Source: an uncultured Gammaproteobacteria bacterium
GTDB lineage: Bacteria > Patescibacteriota > Patescibacteriia > Magasanikbacterales > GWA2-37-8
Assembly: GCA_964496095.1 (NCBI GenBank)
Contig: CAZBWU010000005.1
Span: forward strand, 19,704 to 83,703
Length of the DNA: 64,000 bases
Direction of reading: 5' to 3'
Both the position numbers and the translations under genes were made by a program. The notes beneath the pieces were generated by a model. The model had not been told where the DNA came from. It was given only the letters and a program-made list of their open reading frames with translations, and did not search any database. Every line of letters begins with the position of its first letter. The first letter of the stretch is position 1. This document shows, in pieces, positions 3,102 through 64,000 of the stretch.

Positions 3102-4148
3102 ATGCCAAAAAATTATAAACTACTTTCACTGATAGCCGGCCTGCTTACTTTGTCTTGTTTTTTAATTGGTTATTTTATTGTGGGTTATTTTTCTCTTATT
3201 CAATTTTCTCAGGCTATGGCTGATAATGATTTTCTTGTTAGCGCCAAAAGGTATACTAATAGTCTAGATGGACAAGTAGTAAAAACCAAAAATGAAACAG
3301 TTTCGGCTGTGGTAGGGATAATGATTGAAACTCACCCAGATGCCCGTCCAATGATTGGATTCTCCAAAGCCAAGATTGTTTATGAAGCTCCGGTAGAAGG
3401 AAGCTTTACTCGTTATCTAGCCATTTTTGATAGCAAACAAAATGTGCCAAAAATTGGACCAGTGCGTAGTGCTCGGCCATACTTTATAGATTGGTTGCAA
3501 GAATATGGCGCTGGGCTATATATGCATTCAGGTGGTTCGCCAGAGGCTTTGAGTTTAATAAAATCTAGAAATATTTTTGATGCCAATGAATTTTATTGGG
3601 GCCAGTATTATTGGCGTGACCAAGTGAGATTTGCTCCGCACAATCTGTATACAAGTAGTGATAATTGGAGGAAAATTTTGGATAAGTATGGCAATAACAA
3701 AGAACAATTTGGTCCGGCCAAGGCTTGGAAATATACAGCTATCGTGGGTAAGACGATTGCCAGTGACAGTAAGTTAAGTATTGATTTTAATTCAAGCTAT
3801 GGCGTGATGTGGAATTATGATTCGAAGTCCTTGCTTTATGTTCGCAGTGTCAATGGCAACAAAGAAAAAGATGCCGATGGTGCCGGAGTTTTTGCTCGAA
3901 ATGTGATTGTGCAATTTACCGATGTACAGCTAATTGCTGGTGATGATAGTGGTAGAAGAACTGTTCAGACTCTTGGTGGTGGTAAAGCTATGGTTTTAAA
4001 AAAAGGAAGTATTATTAATGGAACTTGGGAGAAGAAAACTTTGACTGACCGTACTAGGTTTTATGATAAAAATCACAGAGAAATTTTACTCGCCCCGGGT
4101 AATACTTGGGTAGAAGTAGTGCCAAATGAGGCCAAAATTTCAGGTTAG
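3102..4148 (+). CDS. exported/membrane-anchored hypothetical protein, possibly DUF3048-like
   Basis: N-terminal TM/signal segment. Family assignment is from memory of DUF3048 proteins common in small-genome bacteria and is low confidence. Confidence 0.45.
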   Translation: MPKNYKLLSLIAGLLTLSCFLIGYFIVGYFSLIQFSQAMADNDFLVSAKRYTNSLDGQVVKTKNETVSAVVGIMIETHPDARPMIGFSKAKIVYEAPVEGSFTRYLAIFDSKQNVPKIGPVRSARPYFIDWLQEYGAGLYMHSGGSPEALSLIKSRNIFDANEFYWGQYYWRDQVRFAPHNLYTSSDNWRKILDKYGNNKEQFGPAKAWKYTAIVGKTIASDSKLSIDFNSSYGVMWNYDSKSLLYVRSVNGNKEKDADGAGVFARNVIVQFTDVQLIAGDDSGRRTVQTLGGGKAMVLKKGSIINGTWEKKTLTDRTRFYDKNHREILLAPGNTWVEVVPNEAKISG

Positions 4149-4993
4149 TCCTTCGTTATTTTAACTAGCCTGTCTAGTCCCGCCAAGTCTTTTTTTATTT
4201 CTATTTTTGCACCAGGTAATATTTGTGCAATTAAGTTTGAGATGGTTTTTGTTTGGGAGGGGTCTATCTCTAAAAGAAGGAGTAGGTTGTGGGGAGGGGG
4301 TAGTAATTTTATTTGTTTTAATAATTCTTCGTATAGGGTTAGGCCTTGTTTGTTTGCTACCAGTGCATTTTTTGGTTCTTTTTGAATAGACGGTTCGTTT
4401 TGAAATTGTTGTTCGGTGATGTAGGGAAGATTGGCACTTATAATAAGCTGATTAGCTTGCAGGTTGTAGTTTTTTAGAATTGGTTCAAGTAAATTGCCTT
4501 GTAAAAAATTTATTTTTACCTCATGTGTTTTTGCATTTTTTTTGGCTACTTGTAGAGCTGGTTTAGATATATCAATCGCAAAAGTTTGGGTAGGTTCTTT
4601 TATATTTTTCAAAATTGAAATTGGAATACAGCCACTGCCTGTGCCAACGTCAATTAAAATATTCTTTTCGTTTTTTGTTTTTAATTCGTTATTCAAAATG
4701 CTTACAACTTCTTCTACCATCATTTCTGTTTCTGGGCGGGGGATTAAGACTTTTTTATTCACAAAAAAATCAAGGCCATAGAATTCTTTGTGGCCAATAA
4801 TAACAGCGACAGAGTAGCCTTTTTTTCGCAGATAAATAAAGTATGCTAAAGAGATCTTTTCTAAAAAAGATAGACTGTATTCTGGATGTATAAGTATGAA
4901 GTTCTTTGGTTTGTGAATGCTTTTGGCAAGGAGAAGTTCTAGGTCTAAGTTGTCTAGAGAGCTATATTTTTTTTGTAATTCACGAATGGTCAT
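4145..4993 (-). CDS. prmC: release-factor glutamine N5-methyltransferase PrmC/HemK
   Basis: EFYGLDFFVNKKVLIPRPETE, VGTGSGCI (SAM motif I), NLPY (NPPY-like). Lies immediately downstream of prfA on the - strand. Confidence 0.85.
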   Translation of the reverse strand: MTIRELQKKYSSLDNLDLELLLAKSIHKPKNFILIHPEYSLSFLEKISLAYFIYLRKKGYSVAVIIGHKEFYGLDFFVNKKVLIPRPETEMMVEEVVSILNNELKTKNEKNILIDVGTGSGCIPISILKNIKEPTQTFAIDISKPALQVAKKNAKTHEVKINFLQGNLLEPILKNYNLQANQLIISANLPYITEQQFQNEPSIQKEPKNALVANKQGLTLYEELLKQIKLLPPPHNLLLLLEIDPSQTKTISNLIAQILPGAKIEIKKDLAGLDRLVKITKD

Positions 4994-33326: not shown

Positions 33327-34952
33327 GTGTATAATATTTTTATGTTTGAATTAGATTTTATAAATATTATTGTTGCAGTTTCGCTTGTCATACACGCTGT
33401 GTTGTTGTGGCTTTTATATCGTTATGGTCGCACAACTCCCGGAGGTAAAGCATATTCAGTTGCAATTTTAGCTATCGCCGGTTGGATTTTACCGATGGTA
33501 TTTTATCGGAGTCATATTTTTGGAGAAGTTATTTTGTGGGCGCGCATGCTTTATATTATGGCGTCTTTTACTTCTACCAGCTTTTTTTTATTTACCTTCG
33601 TATTTCCTGATAATAAAAAACCGCCACTGTGGGTTGAATTGGGGCTTCTTATAGAAAATATTTTAATAATTCTACTTTGTCTTCATCCGACCCTTATGAT
33701 TAGAGGTGTTTCTTTTGTTGATAAAGGTGAAGATATTATTTTGTGGGGACCGTTGTATTTTGTGTATTCCTTGCATATCAGTACTTTTTTTATTTTGGGT
33801 TTTGTTAATCTTTTTATTAAAATGCGTCGTTCGGTAGGTGTGGTGCGTAGTCATATTTTATATATTCTCATCGGTTATTTTTTTGCTTCCAATTTAGCGA
33901 TGGCTACAAATCTGATTTTGCCATGGTTTGGGTATTTTGAATTAAATTGGATGGGGCAATTTTTTTCAACTATTATTGCCATCTTTACTACTTACGCTAT
34001 TTTGAAGCATCAGCTACTGAGTATAAAAGTTATTGCTACTGAGGGTTTTTTAATGATCTTGAATTTTCTTTTAATTTTACGTCTTATTATTTCCGAGTCC
34101 TATCAGCAGTTTATTATTAATTTCTTTTTAGCTTTAGTTGTTTTATTTATTTCTTATTTACTAATAAAAAGCGTATCAAGCGAAGTGAAAAGACGCGAAG
34201 AAACTGCCAAACTTGCCGATTCTCTAGAACGCGCCAATATTCAGCTCCAGGAACTTGATAAACAAAAAACTGAATTTTTATCTATTGCCTCGCACCAGCT
34301 ACGTACGCCATTATCAATTTTAAAAGGTTATATAGAATTAATTATTGATGGCGCCTATGGCAAGGTAGAAAAAAAAACAGTTAAGATTTTGCAAGACATG
34401 GATCTAAACAATGAACATTTAATCAAGCTGGTAGATGAATTTTTAAATATTTCTCGCATTGAGCAGGGGAGAGCCAAGTATAATTTTAGCTTAGTAGATA
34501 TAATTGGTATCACCGAAAGTGTAGTTAAAGATTTCAAAATCAAAGCCAAAGAAAAAAAGATAAAAATTTTATGGGATAAACCAAAAAATATACCGCAGGT
34601 TGATTGTGATCAAGAAAAAATTCATCATGTGGTATTTAATTTTGTTGACAACGCTTTGAAGTATAGCGAAGAAGGTGAGATAAAAGTTTTATTAACTCAA
34701 GAAGAAAAAGGAATTAGTATTCGTGTTCAAGACAATGGTATTGGATTTAATAAAACAGATGAGGTTAATTTTTATCAGAAATTTTATCGAGGTGAAAATG
34801 TAAAAGGGTCTAATGTGACTGGCACTGGCCTGGGTCTTTTTGTCTGCCGTAAGTTCATTGAGGCACACAATGGTCGGATTTGGGCTCGTAGCTCCGGCTT
34901 GGGCAAGGGCAGTGAATTTGGTTTTTGGATTCCTTTGAAACATGTGATATAA
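33327..34952 (+). CDS. sensor histidine kinase with a multi-TM N-terminal domain
   Basis: HisKA H-box (ASHQLRTPLS). HATPase_c N, G1, G2 boxes (NALKYS, DNGIGF, GTGLGL). At least six N-terminal TM helices. Confidence 0.8.
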   Translation: MYNIFMFELDFINIIVAVSLVIHAVLLWLLYRYGRTTPGGKAYSVAILAIAGWILPMVFYRSHIFGEVILWARMLYIMASFTSTSFFLFTFVFPDNKKPPLWVELGLLIENILIILLCLHPTLMIRGVSFVDKGEDIILWGPLYFVYSLHISTFFILGFVNLFIKMRRSVGVVRSHILYILIGYFFASNLAMATNLILPWFGYFELNWMGQFFSTIIAIFTTYAILKHQLLSIKVIATEGFLMILNFLLILRLIISESYQQFIINFFLALVVLFISYLLIKSVSSEVKRREETAKLADSLERANIQLQELDKQKTEFLSIASHQLRTPLSILKGYIELIIDGAYGKVEKKTVKILQDMDLNNEHLIKLVDEFLNISRIEQGRAKYNFSLVDIIGITESVVKDFKIKAKEKKIKILWDKPKNIPQVDCDQEKIHHVVFNFVDNALKYSEEGEIKVLLTQEEKGISIRVQDNGIGFNKTDEVNFYQKFYRGENVKGSNVTGTGLGLFVCRKFIEAHNGRIWARSSGLGKGSEFGFWIPLKHVI

Positions 34953-34990
34953 TTAAATTCTTAAAATAATCTAACTTTTTTATCAAACAT

Positions 34991-35470
34991 ATGATATTCC
35001 AAAGACAACAGCCAAAAATCCTTGAAGAAATTAATGAGGTAGAAATTGAAGAAATGCCTAGTCATAATGTTCAGGATGAAGTAGAAACAGTGGTTGGCCC
35101 TTCGGTCAACGTAGAAGGGGATTTTGCTTCTGAAGGAAATATCGTAGTCAAAGGAACTGTCTCTGGGAGTGTCTTTACCAGCAAGCATTTGACCGTTGAG
35201 CGTGGCGCCAAAATTATTGCCAATGTACGAGCGGGGAGCGCTACTATTTCTGGTGAAGTAAAAGGCAATATGAAGATAAAAGGAGCTTTGGAATTAACTT
35301 CTACTGCCAAAGTTACGGGTGATATCGATGCTCAAAATTTAAAAATCGAATCAGGCGCGATGCTCTATGGTAAGGTGACTATGCCGGGAATGGAAGTGGG
35401 AGAAAAAAATAGCCGACAAAAAAGTTCTTCAAAGAAAATAGACGAAGCCGAATCTCAGTTCCTGTCTTAG
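34991..35470 (+). CDS. bactofilin-family cytoskeletal protein
   Basis: Repetitive beta-helical segment (VEGDFASEGNIVVKGTVSGSVFTS...ISGEVKGNMKIKG...VTGDIDAQNLKIESGA) typical of bactofilin/DUF583. Confidence 0.65.
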   Translation: MIFQRQQPKILEEINEVEIEEMPSHNVQDEVETVVGPSVNVEGDFASEGNIVVKGTVSGSVFTSKHLTVERGAKIIANVRAGSATISGEVKGNMKIKGALELTSTAKVTGDIDAQNLKIESGAMLYGKVTMPGMEVGEKNSRQKSSSKKIDEAESQFLS

Positions 35471-35482
35471 TGTGTCTAGTTT

Positions 35483-36256
35483 TTGGTAAATATGTATGTT
35501 TATATCTACGACAATTTTTTACGTCAAAAAAATTTCCTCTCTATCGTCCATACCATGGAGGTTATTCTTACCGACTATGGTATAGCCGGTAAAATTTTGC
35601 GTTTACAAAACTATACAGACTCCAAAACAATTATAGAAGACGAAATCAAGCGTGGTGCCAAGACGATTGTGATTGTCGGCAATGATGCTACTTTTGGTCA
35701 AGTCTTGTCTCGCAGTGCTACCAGCAACTGCACCTTTGGTTTTCTTCCCGTTGGCCCAAACAATACCATTGCGGAAGTTTTGGGTATCCCTGTCGGGGTG
35801 GAAGCCTGCACCGTCTTGTCCCGCCGTCGCAAAGAGTTTCTGGATGTGGGTTGGATGAATAATCGCTATTTTGTGTCTCAGCTCAAAGTAATGCCAGCCA
35901 AGTTGGAGGTAGTTTATGATGAGCGTTTCAAGGTGACGGCTACCGATAAAATGGAGGTAATTGTTTGTAATTTACAACCATTTTTTTGGAAAAAAGACAA
36001 AAGAGATAAAGAAGCGCACGTTGTCCATCCCCAAGATGGCAAGCTAGAAGCGTTTATCAGACCATTGACAAAGAGTGGCTGGTGGGGTTATAAATACGAA
36101 GACCCAAGTATCTTTCCTTTTGAAGAAATGACTATTACCGGCAAAGAAGCCTTTACTGTTGAGGCTGATGGTAAGATTTCCAAAGAAGTAAAAGTAAAAA
36201 TAAAATTGGCTCATAGTAAGGTAGAGATGATTGTGGGTAGGGACAGAAAGTTTTAG
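35483..36256 (+). CDS. DAGK_cat/YegS-family lipid kinase-like protein (GGDGT motif degenerated to GNDAT)
   Basis: IVIVGNDATFGQVL...FGFLPVGPNNTIAEVLGIP matches the GGDGT...LGxLPxGTxNDFA..GIP pattern of the diacylglycerol kinase catalytic family. Confidence 0.5.
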   Translation: MVNMYVYIYDNFLRQKNFLSIVHTMEVILTDYGIAGKILRLQNYTDSKTIIEDEIKRGAKTIVIVGNDATFGQVLSRSATSNCTFGFLPVGPNNTIAEVLGIPVGVEACTVLSRRRKEFLDVGWMNNRYFVSQLKVMPAKLEVVYDERFKVTATDKMEVIVCNLQPFFWKKDKRDKEAHVVHPQDGKLEAFIRPLTKSGWWGYKYEDPSIFPFEEMTITGKEAFTVEADGKISKEVKVKIKLAHSKVEMIVGRDRKF

Positions 36257-36257
36257 T

Positions 36258-36911
36258 ATGAAACCGCAGGGAAAGGTAAAAATAAAATGGTCGCCAGAGT
36301 TCGCATATGCAATAGGGTTAATTACATCGGATGGTAGTTTATCAAAAGACGGCAGGCATATATCATTTGTTTCAAAAGATATAGAAATGATAAAAAATTT
36401 TCAGAGAAGCTTGGATTTTTCATGTAAAGTTGGTAAAAAATCGAGCGGTTCAAATAAGAATAAAATTTACAAATTTGTTCAGATAGGCGATGTAAGTTTT
36501 TATAATTTTCTTATTTCAATAGGTTTAATGCCTAATAAAAGCAAGGTAGTAGGAAGTGTCAAAGTTCCAAAAAAATATTTTTTTCATTTTTTAAGAGGTT
36601 GTTTTGATGGAGACGGGAGTTTTTATTCTTATTATGATAAACGATGGAAGTCTAGTTTAATGTTTTATGTAAGCCTTGCCTCAGCAAGTAAAACACATAT
36701 TTTGTGGTTAAGGGCCGAAATTTTAAAGAGATTAAAAATTAAAGGGCATATAGCAAAGAGCTTGCAAAGTTCTGCTTATCAGCTAAGATATGCAAAACAA
36801 GAGTCCCTTAAATTATTGTCTAGTTTATATTTAGATGATACAGTTAGCCTGTCTAGAAAGAAGTTAAAAATACTGAAAGTTATAAAAAGTAAAAAAGCGC
36901 GGGTGGTGTAA
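36258..36911 (+). CDS. LAGLIDADG-family homing endonuclease (two-motif, single-chain type), free-standing
   Basis: Two LAGLIDADG motifs about 100 aa apart: YAIGLITSDGSL and FLRGCFDGDGSF. The last 15 nt overlap the 5' end of tRNA-Leu. Confidence 0.8.
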   Translation: MKPQGKVKIKWSPEFAYAIGLITSDGSLSKDGRHISFVSKDIEMIKNFQRSLDFSCKVGKKSSGSNKNKIYKFVQIGDVSFYNFLISIGLMPNKSKVVGSVKVPKKYFFHFLRGCFDGDGSFYSYYDKRWKSSLMFYVSLASASKTHILWLRAEILKRLKIKGHIAKSLQSSAYQLRYAKQESLKLLSSLYLDDTVSLSRKKLKILKVIKSKKARVV

Positions 36912-36979
36912 TGGTAGCCACGCAGCCTTGAGGTGGCTGTGCCCGCAAGGGCATGGAGGTTCAAGTCCTCTCCCGCGCA
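36897..36979 (+). tRNA. tRNA-Leu (anticodon GAG), class II with a long variable arm; CCA not encoded
   Basis: Acceptor stem GCGCGGG/CCCGCGC. Anticodon stem CAGCC/GGCTG with loop TTGAGGT. 15-nt variable arm. T-loop TTCAAGT. Discriminator A. Confidence 0.85.
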
Positions 36980-37073
36980 CTAGTTAAATATCGAATTGTG
37001 GTTTGATATTTTATAATTTATAGAATTTTCTAAATTTTATAAATAATCTTCAGGTTATTTTGTGAAATAATTT

Positions 37074-39047
37074 ATGAAACGAGAATATTATTCTAATTCG
37101 ATTGCTCTTTTCATAAAGTCTGATGTAGATGAGATACTTGGTAAATTGACACGAAATAGCGACTTTGATTTAGGGCAAAATCAGCGAGACGCATGGGTAG
37201 AAGAAATTAATATTTTGCAAAAAGTTTTAGCTTCTTATTCTGGCTCAATTTGCTTTGAATATTCTATTCCCAGAATGGGAAAGAGAATTGACACAGTTTT
37301 AATTATTGGGCCAGCTATTTTTATTCTTGAATTTAAGGTTGGAGATAAAGAATTTTCTTCCAGTGCGCTAGATCAGGTTTGGGATTATGCTCTGGATTTA
37401 AAAAATTTCCACAGCTCAAGTCATAATCATTTTATAGTACCTGTTCTTATTGCAACAAATGCAAAAAATATTTCTCCTGTTATTTCGTTAACTCCAAAGA
37501 GCGACAAGGTTCTTTTTCCTATAAAATCAAACCTGGAAACATTAAAGATTGTTTTAGATAATTCCTTGGCTTTATTAGACGGGAATAGTATTGATGTTGC
37601 AGAATGGGAAAAAGGAAGATACTGTCCTACCCCGACTATTGTTGAAGCGGCTATGGCTTTATATAGGGGGCATTCTGTTGAAAATATTTCGCGAAATGAT
37701 GCTGGGGCAATTAATTTGACCCAAACATCTGAGGTTGTGTCAGAAATAATCAGGTCTTCACGAGATAAATCACAAAAATCAATTTGCTTTGTTACTGGTG
37801 TGCCTGGTGCTGGAAAGACGTTAGTTGGGTTAAATATCGCAAATAAACATATTGATAAAGAAAATGATTTGTACAGTGTCTTTCTTTCTGGAAACGGACC
37901 GCTTGTAGCAATTCTGCGAGAAGCATTGACTCGTGATAGGGTGTTCCATGAGAAAGAAAAAGGAAATAAAATTACCAAAGGTGACGCCATGCGAAATGTT
38001 AAATTATTTATTCAAAATGTTCATAATTTTCGGGATGATTGTTTGAAGGATGAAAAACCACCAATTGAACATGTTGCTCTTTTTGATGAAGCACAGCGAG
38101 CTTGGAATTTAGAACAAACAGCTAATTTCATGCAGAGGAAAAAAGGTAAGCCAGATTTTAATCAATCTGAGCCAGAGTTTCTTATTTCTTGTCTTGATCG
38201 TCATAAGGACTGGGCAGTTGTTGTTTGTTTAGTTGGTGGAGGTCAAGAAATAAATACGGGGGAGGCGGGAATTAGCGAATGGATTAAATGTTTAAATAGT
38301 TCATTTCCAGATTGGAATGTTTATGTGTCTTCTAGGTTAACTGATAGTGAATATGGAGCAGGAAAAATTCTAGACCAAATCAAGGCTCATAAAAATGTAT
38401 TTATGAAAGATGAACTACATTTGTCTGTTTCGATGCGTTCATTTCGTGCTGAGCATGTTTCGTTGCTTATAAAACAAGTTCTTGATATAGATTTAGCAGA
38501 AGCGCAAAAAACATTAACACAGGTAAAATTACAATATCCAATTGTAATTACTCGTGATATTGTAAAAGCAAAGGAATGGTTAAAAAAACAAGCTCGTGGT
38601 TCCGAACGTTATGGAATGGTTGTTTCTTCACAGGCAGAGAGATTAAAACCTCATGCAGTGTTTGTAAAGTCAGCCATGGACCCTATTCATTGGTTTCTTG
38701 ATGGTAAGGAAGATGTTCGCTCGTCGTATTACCTTGAAGATGTAGCAACAGAATTTGATATTCAAGGGTTGGAATTAGATTGGTCATGTGTAGTTTGGGA
38801 TGCTGATTTTAGGTATACAGTGACTGGTTGGGACTGCAGATCATTTGTTGGTAGTAAGTGGAATTATATTAAAAAATTTGAGAGGCAAATGTATTTAAAA
38901 AATGCATATCGTGTTTTACTCACTCGAGCCAGGCAAGGAATGGTTATTGTTATTCCACCTGGTGATCCTTTAGACCCCACTCGTAATCCAGATTTTTATA
39001 ATCCTATTTTCAATTACCTTAAAGATGTCGGCTTCGAAGAGATTTAG
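37074..39047 (+). CDS. PD-(D/E)xK nuclease plus SF1-helicase-like ATPase fusion (DUF2075-like)
   Basis: N-terminal nuclease-type D...ExK (IDTVLI ... ILEFK). Walker A GVPGAGKT. Walker B / DExQ (LFDEAQRAW). SF1 motif VI ([11 protein letters not shown]). Confidence 0.65.
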
Positions 39048-62196: not shown

Positions 62197-62583
62197 GTAA
62201 AAGCTTAAAAAACTAATAAAACTCCCGCAAAAAAATTTCATTAAAAATTAATATTCTCGGGCAAGTCCGCTGTGGAAACTGTCTGCCTCATTTTGAGGGA
62301 AAGAAAAAAGAGCAATCAAGATTTGATTTCTCTTTTTTCTTTCTAACCTGTCATTAGGTAAGGTCAGGTAATAGATTGAAAAAAGTATTTCGTTCCGCTA
62401 CGGTGGAAAACGAAAAAGTACATTGACAACACAAATGTGACAAAGACCACAAAAAAAGTCTATCCGAAAAAACTCGGGTTATTCCGAGTCTAAATAATAA
62501 ATAAATCCAAAAATGATAACTTGTTCATCAGCCCTTACAGCTTCGGCTGTGTAGGGTGAACAAAAATCAAATCTCTTTTTTTA

Positions 62584-64000
<1,417 letters not shown>

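Follow-up and report, generated by a model that had tools for sequence, protein, structure and literature searches.

How can a homing endonuclease gene persist at an essential tRNA gene outside any intron or intein? The question is raised by a locus in a 64,000-nt stretch of DNA (hereafter the window) from an uncultured bacterium of the Magasanikbacterales (Patescibacteriota; assembly GCA_964496095.1, contig CAZBWU010000005.1, positions 19,704 to 83,703), where a LAGLIDADG endonuclease gene runs into the 5' end of a gene for tRNA-Leu(GAG). LAGLIDADG homing endonucleases make site-specific double-strand cuts at targets of ~20 bp, leaving 4-nt 3' overhangs, and homing endonuclease genes usually spare their hosts by residing in self-splicing introns, inteins or harmless intergenic DNA. 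The family to which the window gene belongs appears to take a third route in bacteria, settling in an essential tRNA gene that it restores. We consider it likely that this is a mobile endonuclease family seated at the 5' end of tRNA-Leu(GAG), whose members would cut and rebuild the tRNA gene, both the cleavage and its target being predicted from the arrangement of the loci.

The endonuclease gene and its two junctions

The features that make up the locus are given below.

35483-36256, + strand: DAGK_cat-domain (lipid-kinase-like) gene, the upstream neighbour (Pfam DAGK_cat, E 9.5e-8)
36254-36260, + strand: left junction TAG T ATG, read from the sequence; DAGK stop codon TAG (36254-36256), 1 nt, endonuclease start codon
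36258-36911, + strand: free-standing monomeric (double-motif) LAGLIDADG homing endonuclease gene, 217 amino acids (aa) (Pfam LAGLIDADG_3, AlphaFold2 model, fold matches)
36300-36335, + strand: LAGLIDADG motif 1, FAYAIGLITSDG, residues 15-26, catalytic-position D25 (homologue alignment)
36579-36617, + strand: LAGLIDADG motif 2, FFHFLRGCFDGDG, residues 108-120, catalytic-position D119 (homologue alignment)
36897-36911, + strand: right junction, read from the sequence; the last four sense codons and TAA of the endonuclease gene are tRNA positions 1-15
36897-36980, + strand: tRNA-Leu(GAG), 84 nt, intact and intron-free (ARAGORN; Rfam tRNA, 48.9 bits, full length)

The endonuclease open reading frame (ORF) runs from an ATG at 36258 to a TAA at 36909-36911. 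Its start was set by the N-terminus MKPxGKVKIKWS, which is conserved among homologues; the ORF listing reaches further, to a TTG at 36231. An earlier note on this DNA, made from the letters alone, had described a double-motif LAGLIDADG protein of 218 aa; the double motif stands, and the length becomes 217 aa when counted from the conserved N-terminus. Pfam LAGLIDADG_3 matches the protein in two stretches (43.1 bits against a cut-off of 22.5), and the chain carries two motifs, each ending in a conserved acidic residue. The possibility that the motifs are disrupted, which that note had left to be checked, does not apply, as both are unbroken. In an alignment of 24 homologues (A1), G20, L21, D25 and G26 of motif 1 and G114, D117, G118, D119 and G120 of motif 2 are invariant. 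In alignment, motif 1 matches the first motif of 2DCH; motif 2 matches the second, and also I-CreI.

The AlphaFold2 model of the protein (pLDDT 89.1, pTM 0.87) consists of two alpha-beta-beta-alpha-beta-beta-alpha halves, the tandem fold that forms the DNA-binding saddle, and Foldseek comparisons agree. The top match in the PDB, by sequence as well as by fold, is the archaeal rRNA-intron enzyme I-Tsp061I (2DCH; sequence E 3e-6, fold E 3.7e-12), followed by intein endonucleases, WhiA, I-AniI, I-DmoI and I-SceI, with LAGLIDADG maturases also among the matches; Foldseek E values for I-Tsp061I, I-AniI, I-DmoI and I-SceI range from 1e-12 to 1e-7. The protein does not resemble WhiA in its diagnostic features, since the acidic residues are retained and the Pfam LAGLIDADG_WhiA profile scores 16.5 bits, below its cut-off of 23.2, and neither the model nor Pfam gives any additional helix-turn-helix (HTH) or RNA-binding domain in the 217 aa. 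The window ORF is an intact member of the LAGLIDADG endonuclease family, its predicted substrate being a tRNA-Leu(GAG) gene that lacks the endonuclease. No second copy was found within the window.

The gene lies where the earlier note had placed it, between the lipid-kinase-like gene, which ends at 36256, and the tRNA. It is also free-standing, as had been proposed: it has its own ATG 1 nt past the upstream stop codon, is not in frame with a host protein, and lies in a region (35000-38000) in which a permissive Rfam scan (E up to 10) found no group I intron or other RNA family. With a single nucleotide between the upstream stop and its ATG, the ORF is probably transcribed together with the upstream gene and coupled to it in translation. 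The left junction leaves no space for a promoter and does not contain the pseudo-tRNA half that is described below for other loci. The likely true start of the DAGK-like gene is an ATG ~9 nt downstream of the listed one, giving a protein of 254 aa with more than 100 homologues at 73-91% identity, those with names belonging to Magasanikbacteria/Patescibacteria.

At the right junction, the overlap reads GCG CGG GTG GTG TAA and covers the acceptor 5' strand, positions 8-9, the D-stem 5' strand and the start of the D-loop, from which the stop codon is taken. The 15-nt overlap had been seen before, and that part of the description holds; it comprises four sense codons plus the stop, and the two AAA codons that had been counted with it precede the tRNA. 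The tRNA itself is intact and uninterrupted, again in line with the first description.

A family linked to tRNA-Leu(GAG)

A protein search returned at least 3671 homologues of the window endonuclease, the best 120 of which are 59-73% identical and ~215-227 aa long; those of the 120 that name a source are Patescibacteria. Several homologues terminate in 'ARV...', the translated 5' end of tRNA-Leu. The family ORFs are mostly annotated as 'hypothetical' or 'intein-encoded endonuclease-like', and many are annotated with a 3' end that falls within the tRNA. In the ultra-small bacteria of the candidate phyla radiation (CPR), scanned with one genome for each species, at least 565 relatives were confirmed. 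At 76 of the 80 best homologous CPR loci (loci of relatives carry numbers with the prefix L), tRNA-Leu(GAG) lies downstream on the same strand. Exceptions are L007, where the anticodon is AAG, L016, with an anomalous tRNA call, and three contigs that break off at this point.

The gap between stop codon and tRNA ranges from -44 to +52 nt over 88 scored loci (median 2.5) and is 0-15 nt in 64 of them. The ORF extends into the tRNA in 21 of the 88, and all of these except L033 (20 of 21) enter it in the frame of tRNA position 1, mostly as GCG CGG GTG; the stop codon of the overlapping ORFs is either a D-loop TAA or TAG or the TGA within CTTGAGG, the anticodon loop. The 15-nt overlap of the window is the commonest state among them. 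Far from being peculiar to the genome of the window, the overlap is a recurrent state of a junction that the whole family conserves. The upstream gene is rplS (encoding L19) at 52 of 70 loci and DAGK-like at seven, with others in the rest, and the gaps to it vary from 1 to ~900 nt. No group I intron adjoins the endonuclease gene in 20 other loci checked. The pairing of ORF and tRNA is conserved over many CPR lineages despite the varying upstream context.

The 3' end of the family ORFs (tail '...ALxIIG...') is rich in -10-like boxes, situated 8-45 nt before tRNA-Leu(GAG) (L001-L160). A box matching at least five of six positions is present in 48% of occupied loci and in 15% of control windows within the ORF, and an exact TATAAT in 18 and 1%, respectively. 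These boxes may constitute an embedded tRNA promoter. By eye, no box of at least five of six positions occurs in the 8-45 nt before the window tRNA, and a separate promoter for the tRNA is not supported there.

Presence, absence and decay among relatives

A metagenome scan anchored on rplS, in which sampling is independent of the endonuclease, yielded 52 interpretable loci. Both occupied and empty contigs came, for instance, from the Hainich groundwater metagenomes. In 40 of these, rplS is followed directly by tRNA-Leu(GAG) without an endonuclease, in 11 a full-length copy intervenes, and one (L103) holds a remnant, the C-terminal third of the gene only, so that about one fifth of the rplS-tRNA-Leu loci are occupied. 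L098, counted as empty, keeps the upstream motif introduced in the next section together with the last ~60 nt of the ORF, which makes it an internal deletion. In the closest pairs of occupied and empty loci, with L19 91-92% identical, DNA homology breaks off ~9 nt past the rplS stop and is found again from ~8 nt ahead of the tRNA. Three otherwise well-conserved copies contain a single in-frame nonsense codon (L012:4031, W11 to TGA; L044:4484, G163 to TGA; L055:4226, Q75 to TAG) and are either early pseudogenes or errors of assembly or strain consensus.

Synteny is kept in the clade of the window, in the order histidine kinase, bactofilin, DAGK, [endonuclease], tRNA-Leu(GAG), 80-aa protein, methyltransferase. 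The state of the site in the closest relatives is as follows, with identities to the window.

L161: DAGK 83% identical; endonuclease absent; 8 nt from DAGK stop to tRNA, spacer TTAAACCA
L162/L163: DAGK 81% identical; endonuclease absent; 4 nt to tRNA (L162 spacer ATAA)
L164/L165: DAGK 80% identical; endonuclease absent; 68 nt from DAGK stop to tRNA
L166: DAGK 83% identical; endonuclease present, only 56% identical to the window copy
L167/L168: DAGK 90% identical; endonuclease present, 72% identical; same TAG T ATG junction

The DAGK-endonuclease junction is similarly short, 3-4 nt, in L001 and L012. Presence and absence at one fixed site are found side by side with degenerate copies, and among close relatives the gene is mobile or losable at exactly the tRNA-Leu(GAG) site. 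This comparison of the relatives' loci shows the signature of homing into the tRNA locus or beside it, as had been suggested earlier.

Two features of this clade concern the surroundings of the site. The block of HisKA_7TM histidine kinase, bactofilin and DAGK-like gene (window 33327-35470, + strand) is strictly conserved upstream of tRNA-Leu(GAG) in the Magasanikbacteria-like clade. In the endonuclease-less relatives L161 and L162 the tRNA begins 4-8 nt past the DAGK stop, a spacing that requires transcription of the tRNA to start within or upstream of the DAGK-like gene.

A displaced tRNA fragment upstream of the gene

At 66 of the 88 occupied loci, the motif ATTGGTATACGCTATTACCTTGAGGT followed by TATAAT is located 10-60 nt upstream of the start codon, and it occurs in none of the empty spacers. 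The motif, which can also be written as ATTGGTATACGCTATTACCTTGAGGTATAAT, is the segment of tRNA-Leu(GAG) that begins in the D-loop and ends with the anticodon loop, and the consensus of the pseudo-half runs to ...ACGCTATTACCTTGAGGT. Full 5' halves including the acceptor stem persist in L027 and L065 (nhmmer with a tRNA-Leu profile, E 9e-7 and 2e-4, respectively), while L003, L034 and L045 keep acceptor pieces that are split by indels. The pseudo-half of L065 starts 6 nt past the rplS stop; in three of its nearest endonuclease-less relatives, L151, L140 and L149, the genuine tRNA starts 0-6 nt past that stop, and in a fourth, L144, 37 nt past it. This upstream pseudo-half suggests an insertion into the tRNA gene accompanied by a replacement 5' part.

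The part of the pseudo-half that makes up the motif is more than 90% conserved, whereas the acceptor part has decayed, a difference that may be explained by use of the motif as promoter, operator or homology arm. In many loci TTGGTA, from the D-loop, is followed by an 18-nt spacer and TATAAT, which makes a plausible promoter for the endonuclease. In the window, a hidden Markov model of the motif has no match anywhere, nor is there any tRNA remnant. L167, L001 and L012 are likewise without the motif, their ORFs beginning 1-4 nt past the DAGK stop, whereas L055 retains it in the same DAGK context. This distribution indicates that the window copy is a derived, streamlined form, and it probably depends on upstream transcription.

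Selection and incongruence with the host

The ratio of nonsynonymous to synonymous substitution rates (dN/dS) between endonuclease copies is 0.02-0.2, and intact copies are under purifying selection. Between the window and L167, dN is 0.18 for the endonuclease and 0.06 for the adjacent DAGK gene, i.e. the endonuclease changes three times faster. Within the same genomes, mean pairwise identity is 60% for the endonuclease and 46% for L19, and deep comparisons reach a plateau at ~55-60%. To conclude from these means that a gene more conserved than a ribosomal protein must be a host gene would be misleading, given the threefold faster change relative to DAGK among close relatives.

The distance matrices of the endonuclease and L19 are weakly correlated (Pearson r 0.42, Mantel p 5e-4), and the nearest neighbour by endonuclease is also the nearest by L19 in only six of the 52 loci. 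The window and L166 are a case of incongruence, with DAGK proteins 83% and endonucleases 56% identical. The similarity matrices of endonuclease and host are incongruent, as horizontal spread would make them, yet dS is saturated and no recent transfer can be seen. A phage vector was considered and rejected, as the relatives in IMG/VR phage contigs are all distant (27-33% identity). Taken together, the gene is functional, constrained in its core and patchily distributed, in part incongruently with the host, which fits the life cycle of a homing endonuclease.

A model for invasion and repair of the tRNA gene

The combined observations lead us to propose a model in which the enzyme would cut tRNA-Leu(GAG) genes that lack the endonuclease, in the anticodon stem-loop or close to it, and repair would copy in a cassette composed of a -10 box, a short leader, the endonuclease ORF and a fresh tRNA 5' part. 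The cassette would enter near position 38/39 of the tRNA-Leu(GAG) gene already there, whose own 5' half (positions 1-38) would end up upstream as a pseudo-fragment. Carried along in fusion with the 3' end of the ORF, the 5' portion or the whole of a tRNA would then make the gene complete again, immediately behind the ORF. In the window lineage, the pseudo-half would have been deleted and the stop codon borrowed from the tRNA D-loop. Entry at position 38/39 would explain why the pseudo 5' half ends in the anticodon loop in most copies, and a cassette that brings a replacement tRNA 5' part would account for the tight right and loose left junction, for the intact, intron-free tRNA and for the independence of flanking genes. 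We put forward only tentatively, and with some doubt, the fuller proposition that an essential tRNA gene is invaded without an intron by an element whose ORF ends in a replacement tRNA 5' part, with tRNA-derived portable homology arms on both sides, the pseudo 5' half to the left and the complete tRNA to the right, and with the displaced half re-used as promoter or operator. If true, homing would be independent of flanking synteny and could cross deeply divergent CPR lineages.

Several observations weigh against this model. The rebuilt tRNA would still hold the proposed target in its anticodon stem-loop, and the tRNAs of 88 occupied and 40 empty loci show no fixed difference, their consensus being nearly identical. 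Co-conversion of the tRNA 5' part with the endonuclease gives no signal (partial Mantel r about 0). The pseudo-halves are all of one sequence type and more alike across loci than the real tRNAs, and this uniformity fits one ancient insertion, after which the unit spread or was inherited as a whole, or selection on a promoter, better than capture of the 5' part of each host. The window has no pseudo-half, and the architecture proposed for it is read from its relatives. dS is saturated even for the closest copies (window and L167), which leaves recent transfer undocumented, and among 5.8 billion proteins there are no near-identical copies in distinct lineages, the best non-self match being 73% identical.

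The tRNA genes were compared for further differences between occupied and empty loci. Fixed 'immunity' substitutions in endonuclease-linked tRNAs were rejected, as none was found. The allele GACGC[AG]CTAC[CT]TTGAGGTGGTAG is rarer at occupied loci (2 of 89, against 15 of 43 empty), a suggestive difference, though confounded by phylogeny; in an unbiased subsample the same allele is found in one of 11 occupied and 13 of 40 empty loci (p 0.25). At equal L19 distance, divergence of the D-arm and of the anticodon stem is the same whether both loci of a pair are occupied, both are empty or only one is occupied, a few very close pairs excepted. The idea that the endonuclease drives fast evolution of tRNA-Leu(GAG) was also discarded, its identity being 0.735 compared with 0.724 for eight other tRNAs in the same genome pairs.

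Alternative explanations

Several of these observations would also be at home if the gene had entered the CPR once, early, at tRNA-Leu(GAG) and had since passed by vertical descent with repeated loss and no present mobility. The saturation of dS between the window and L167 in spite of 90% identical DAGK proteins, the absence of near-identical copies across lineages in the protein search, the single sequence type of the pseudo-halves, the correlation of endonuclease and L19 distances and the deletion derivatives L098 and L103 are all in keeping with such a history. It would nevertheless leave the gene under purifying selection although about three quarters of the syntenic loci do without it, and constraint on a gene so widely dispensable calls for either homing or a benefit to the host. 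The discordance of DAGK and endonuclease between the window and L166 and the rarity of agreeing nearest neighbours speak against it as well. Most empty sites carry no trace of either motif or ORF, and those with a spacing of 0-8 nt between upstream gene and tRNA would need very clean deletions; we regard purely vertical inheritance as unlikely. A benefit to the host would be provided by a domesticated LAGLIDADG protein with a role tied to tRNA-Leu(GAG), such as a DNA-binding regulator of the tRNA/rplS region or a maturase-like RNA chaperone, whose linkage would be kept by co-expression. Strong purifying selection with many invariant residues on the beta-sheet surface, a mean identity above that of L19 from these genomes, a conserved and very close linkage with a single tRNA, -10-like boxes near the 3' end of the ORF that may drive the tRNA, and the presence of WhiA and LAGLIDADG maturases among the fold matches could be read in this way. 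The absence of the gene from most syntenic loci (40 of the 52 interpretable rplS-tRNA loci, in addition to close relatives of the window) and the retention of both catalytic acidic residues, unlike in WhiA, render a domesticated host protein improbable, and nonsense and deletion alleles, the lack of an added HTH or RNA-binding domain, the sub-threshold WhiA score and the threefold faster dN than DAGK between close relatives point the same way. We give this role little credence.

tRNA genes are classic integration sites, and in the window a candidate defence gene of the family PDC-S41 has been inserted right after the tRNA, so a tRNA-targeting integrative element or island, or an overlooked intron or intein, also has to be weighed. 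The earlier note had suggested a tRNA-targeted integration module, and this did not survive inspection: no integrase or recombinase is found among the neighbouring ORFs, and there is no att-like repeat of the tRNA, its 3' 26-mer occurring once in the 64 kb even with three mismatches allowed. An integrative island bounded by a tRNA repeat, which would combine an integrase with a direct repeat of the tRNA 3' end, was rejected over the same 64 kb. The helicase-domain gene at this position is an independent insertion, as L166 and L167 have the endonuclease without it. With regard to an intron or intein, group I introns were found neither within nor next to the ORF, whether in the window or in the 20 other loci, and the gene starts with its own ATG 1 nt past the upstream stop, out of frame with any host protein. 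Explanations of this kind are extremely improbable. A mobile endonuclease family that rebuilds the tRNA gene remains the reading we prefer.

Relation to known systems and significance

The window protein shares with enzymes of the I-Tsp061I/I-DmoI type the fold, a size of ~200 aa and two LAGLIDADG motifs per chain, each ending in an acidic residue, although identity to I-Tsp061I (2DCH) is only ~22% at a fold TM-score of 0.64-0.68. Enzymes of this type are encoded inside archaeal rRNA introns, where splicing protects the host gene, whereas the window gene is free-standing, bacterial and tRNA-linked. The principle proposed here has a parallel in a mobile element of the Allomyces mitochondrial atp6 gene, reportedly described by Paquin, Laforest and Lang in 1994, in which a mobile endonuclease ORF is said to bring along a replacement gene end. 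That element is said to insert into an essential gene, to supply the displaced part anew and to leave a pseudo-fragment behind; it concerns the 3' end of a protein-coding gene in a fungal mitochondrion, and the family studied here the 5' part of a tRNA gene in a bacterium.

In lifestyle, the closest match to the probable working of the window element is SegB of phage T4, a free-standing endonuclease encoded in a tRNA cluster, which has its recognition site in the TpsiC stem-loop motif of a tRNA gene and spreads with flanking tRNA genes into relatives that lack it (PMC2330249). The likeness is functional only, as SegB is a GIY-YIG enzyme of a phage and the window protein a LAGLIDADG enzyme of a cellular chromosome without GIY-YIG features, and neither a pseudo-tRNA half nor a fusion at the ORF/tRNA junction is described for SegB. 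Within the CPR, LAGLIDADG genes are known from introns or insertion sequences of 16S and 23S rRNA genes, and homing has been proposed for their spread (PMC11270868). These genes share hosts and superfamily with the present family, which lies outside any intron, and tRNA or free-standing copies are not mentioned in the text of that study. Group I introns, some with endonuclease genes, occupy tRNA anticodon loops, and those endonucleases found in tRNA introns of Patescibacteria are of the HNH type; tRNA-Leu(GAG) is not among the cases reported (PMC13011429). The proposed left boundary of the cassette, after position ~38, would fall in the same loop, but the window family has no ribozyme, and the tRNA following the ORF is complete and uninterrupted. 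The searched literature, including PMC11270868 and PMC13011429, contained no description of a free-standing family linked to tRNA-Leu(GAG).

The family offers a natural system for studying how a selfish gene is gained, decays and is lost in minimal-genome organisms, and it is a possible explanation of some features of gene order and promoters around tRNA-Leu(GAG) in the CPR. The protein is in addition a compact meganuclease scaffold of 217 aa whose natural target is presumably highly conserved.

The gene after the tRNA and other neighbouring features

The gene inserted after the tRNA was annotated as follows.

37074-39047, + strand: 657-aa protein with a Schlafen-group-3/DUF2075-type helicase domain (PADLOC candidate defence family PDC-S41, matched end to end, E 3.8e-288)

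It separates tRNA-Leu(GAG) from the conserved 80-aa gene (39129), and of six loci examined in relatives, five lack it (L161, L164-L166, L167). In L161 and L164-L166 the 80-aa gene comes directly after the tRNA and synteny resumes there, L167 has an unidentified minus-strand gene in place of the PDC-S41 gene, and in L162/L163 a different sequence follows the tRNA and the 80-aa gene is missing. The PDC-S41 gene was inserted singly and independently of the endonuclease, and the accessory island that the tRNA had been thought to open is reduced to this one gene.

tRNA-Leu(GAG) is the sole tRNA in the 64 kb, and the only other RNA gene found is that of the 16S rRNA (62577-64000, + strand), which is truncated by the end of the window. 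The 1424 nt present cover model positions 1-1446, and no large insertion is therefore contained in this part of the 16S rRNA gene. In L097, the 16S rRNA gene (10-2388) carries a group I intron at 1000-1439 (Rfam Intron_gpI, 53.4 bits); it is located just upstream of the rplS-endonuclease-tRNA-Leu segment, and the intron is unrelated to the endonuclease ORF at 3680-4309. Other tRNA genes surround the site in many loci, with tRNA-Val (TAC or GAC), tRNA-Ile or tRNA-Arg(TCT) 1-3 kb upstream and tRNA-His(GTG), or the series Val-Phe-Gly, downstream. The tRNAs of these CPR genomes are in general highly divergent, with pairwise identities of ~72-74% even among relatives.

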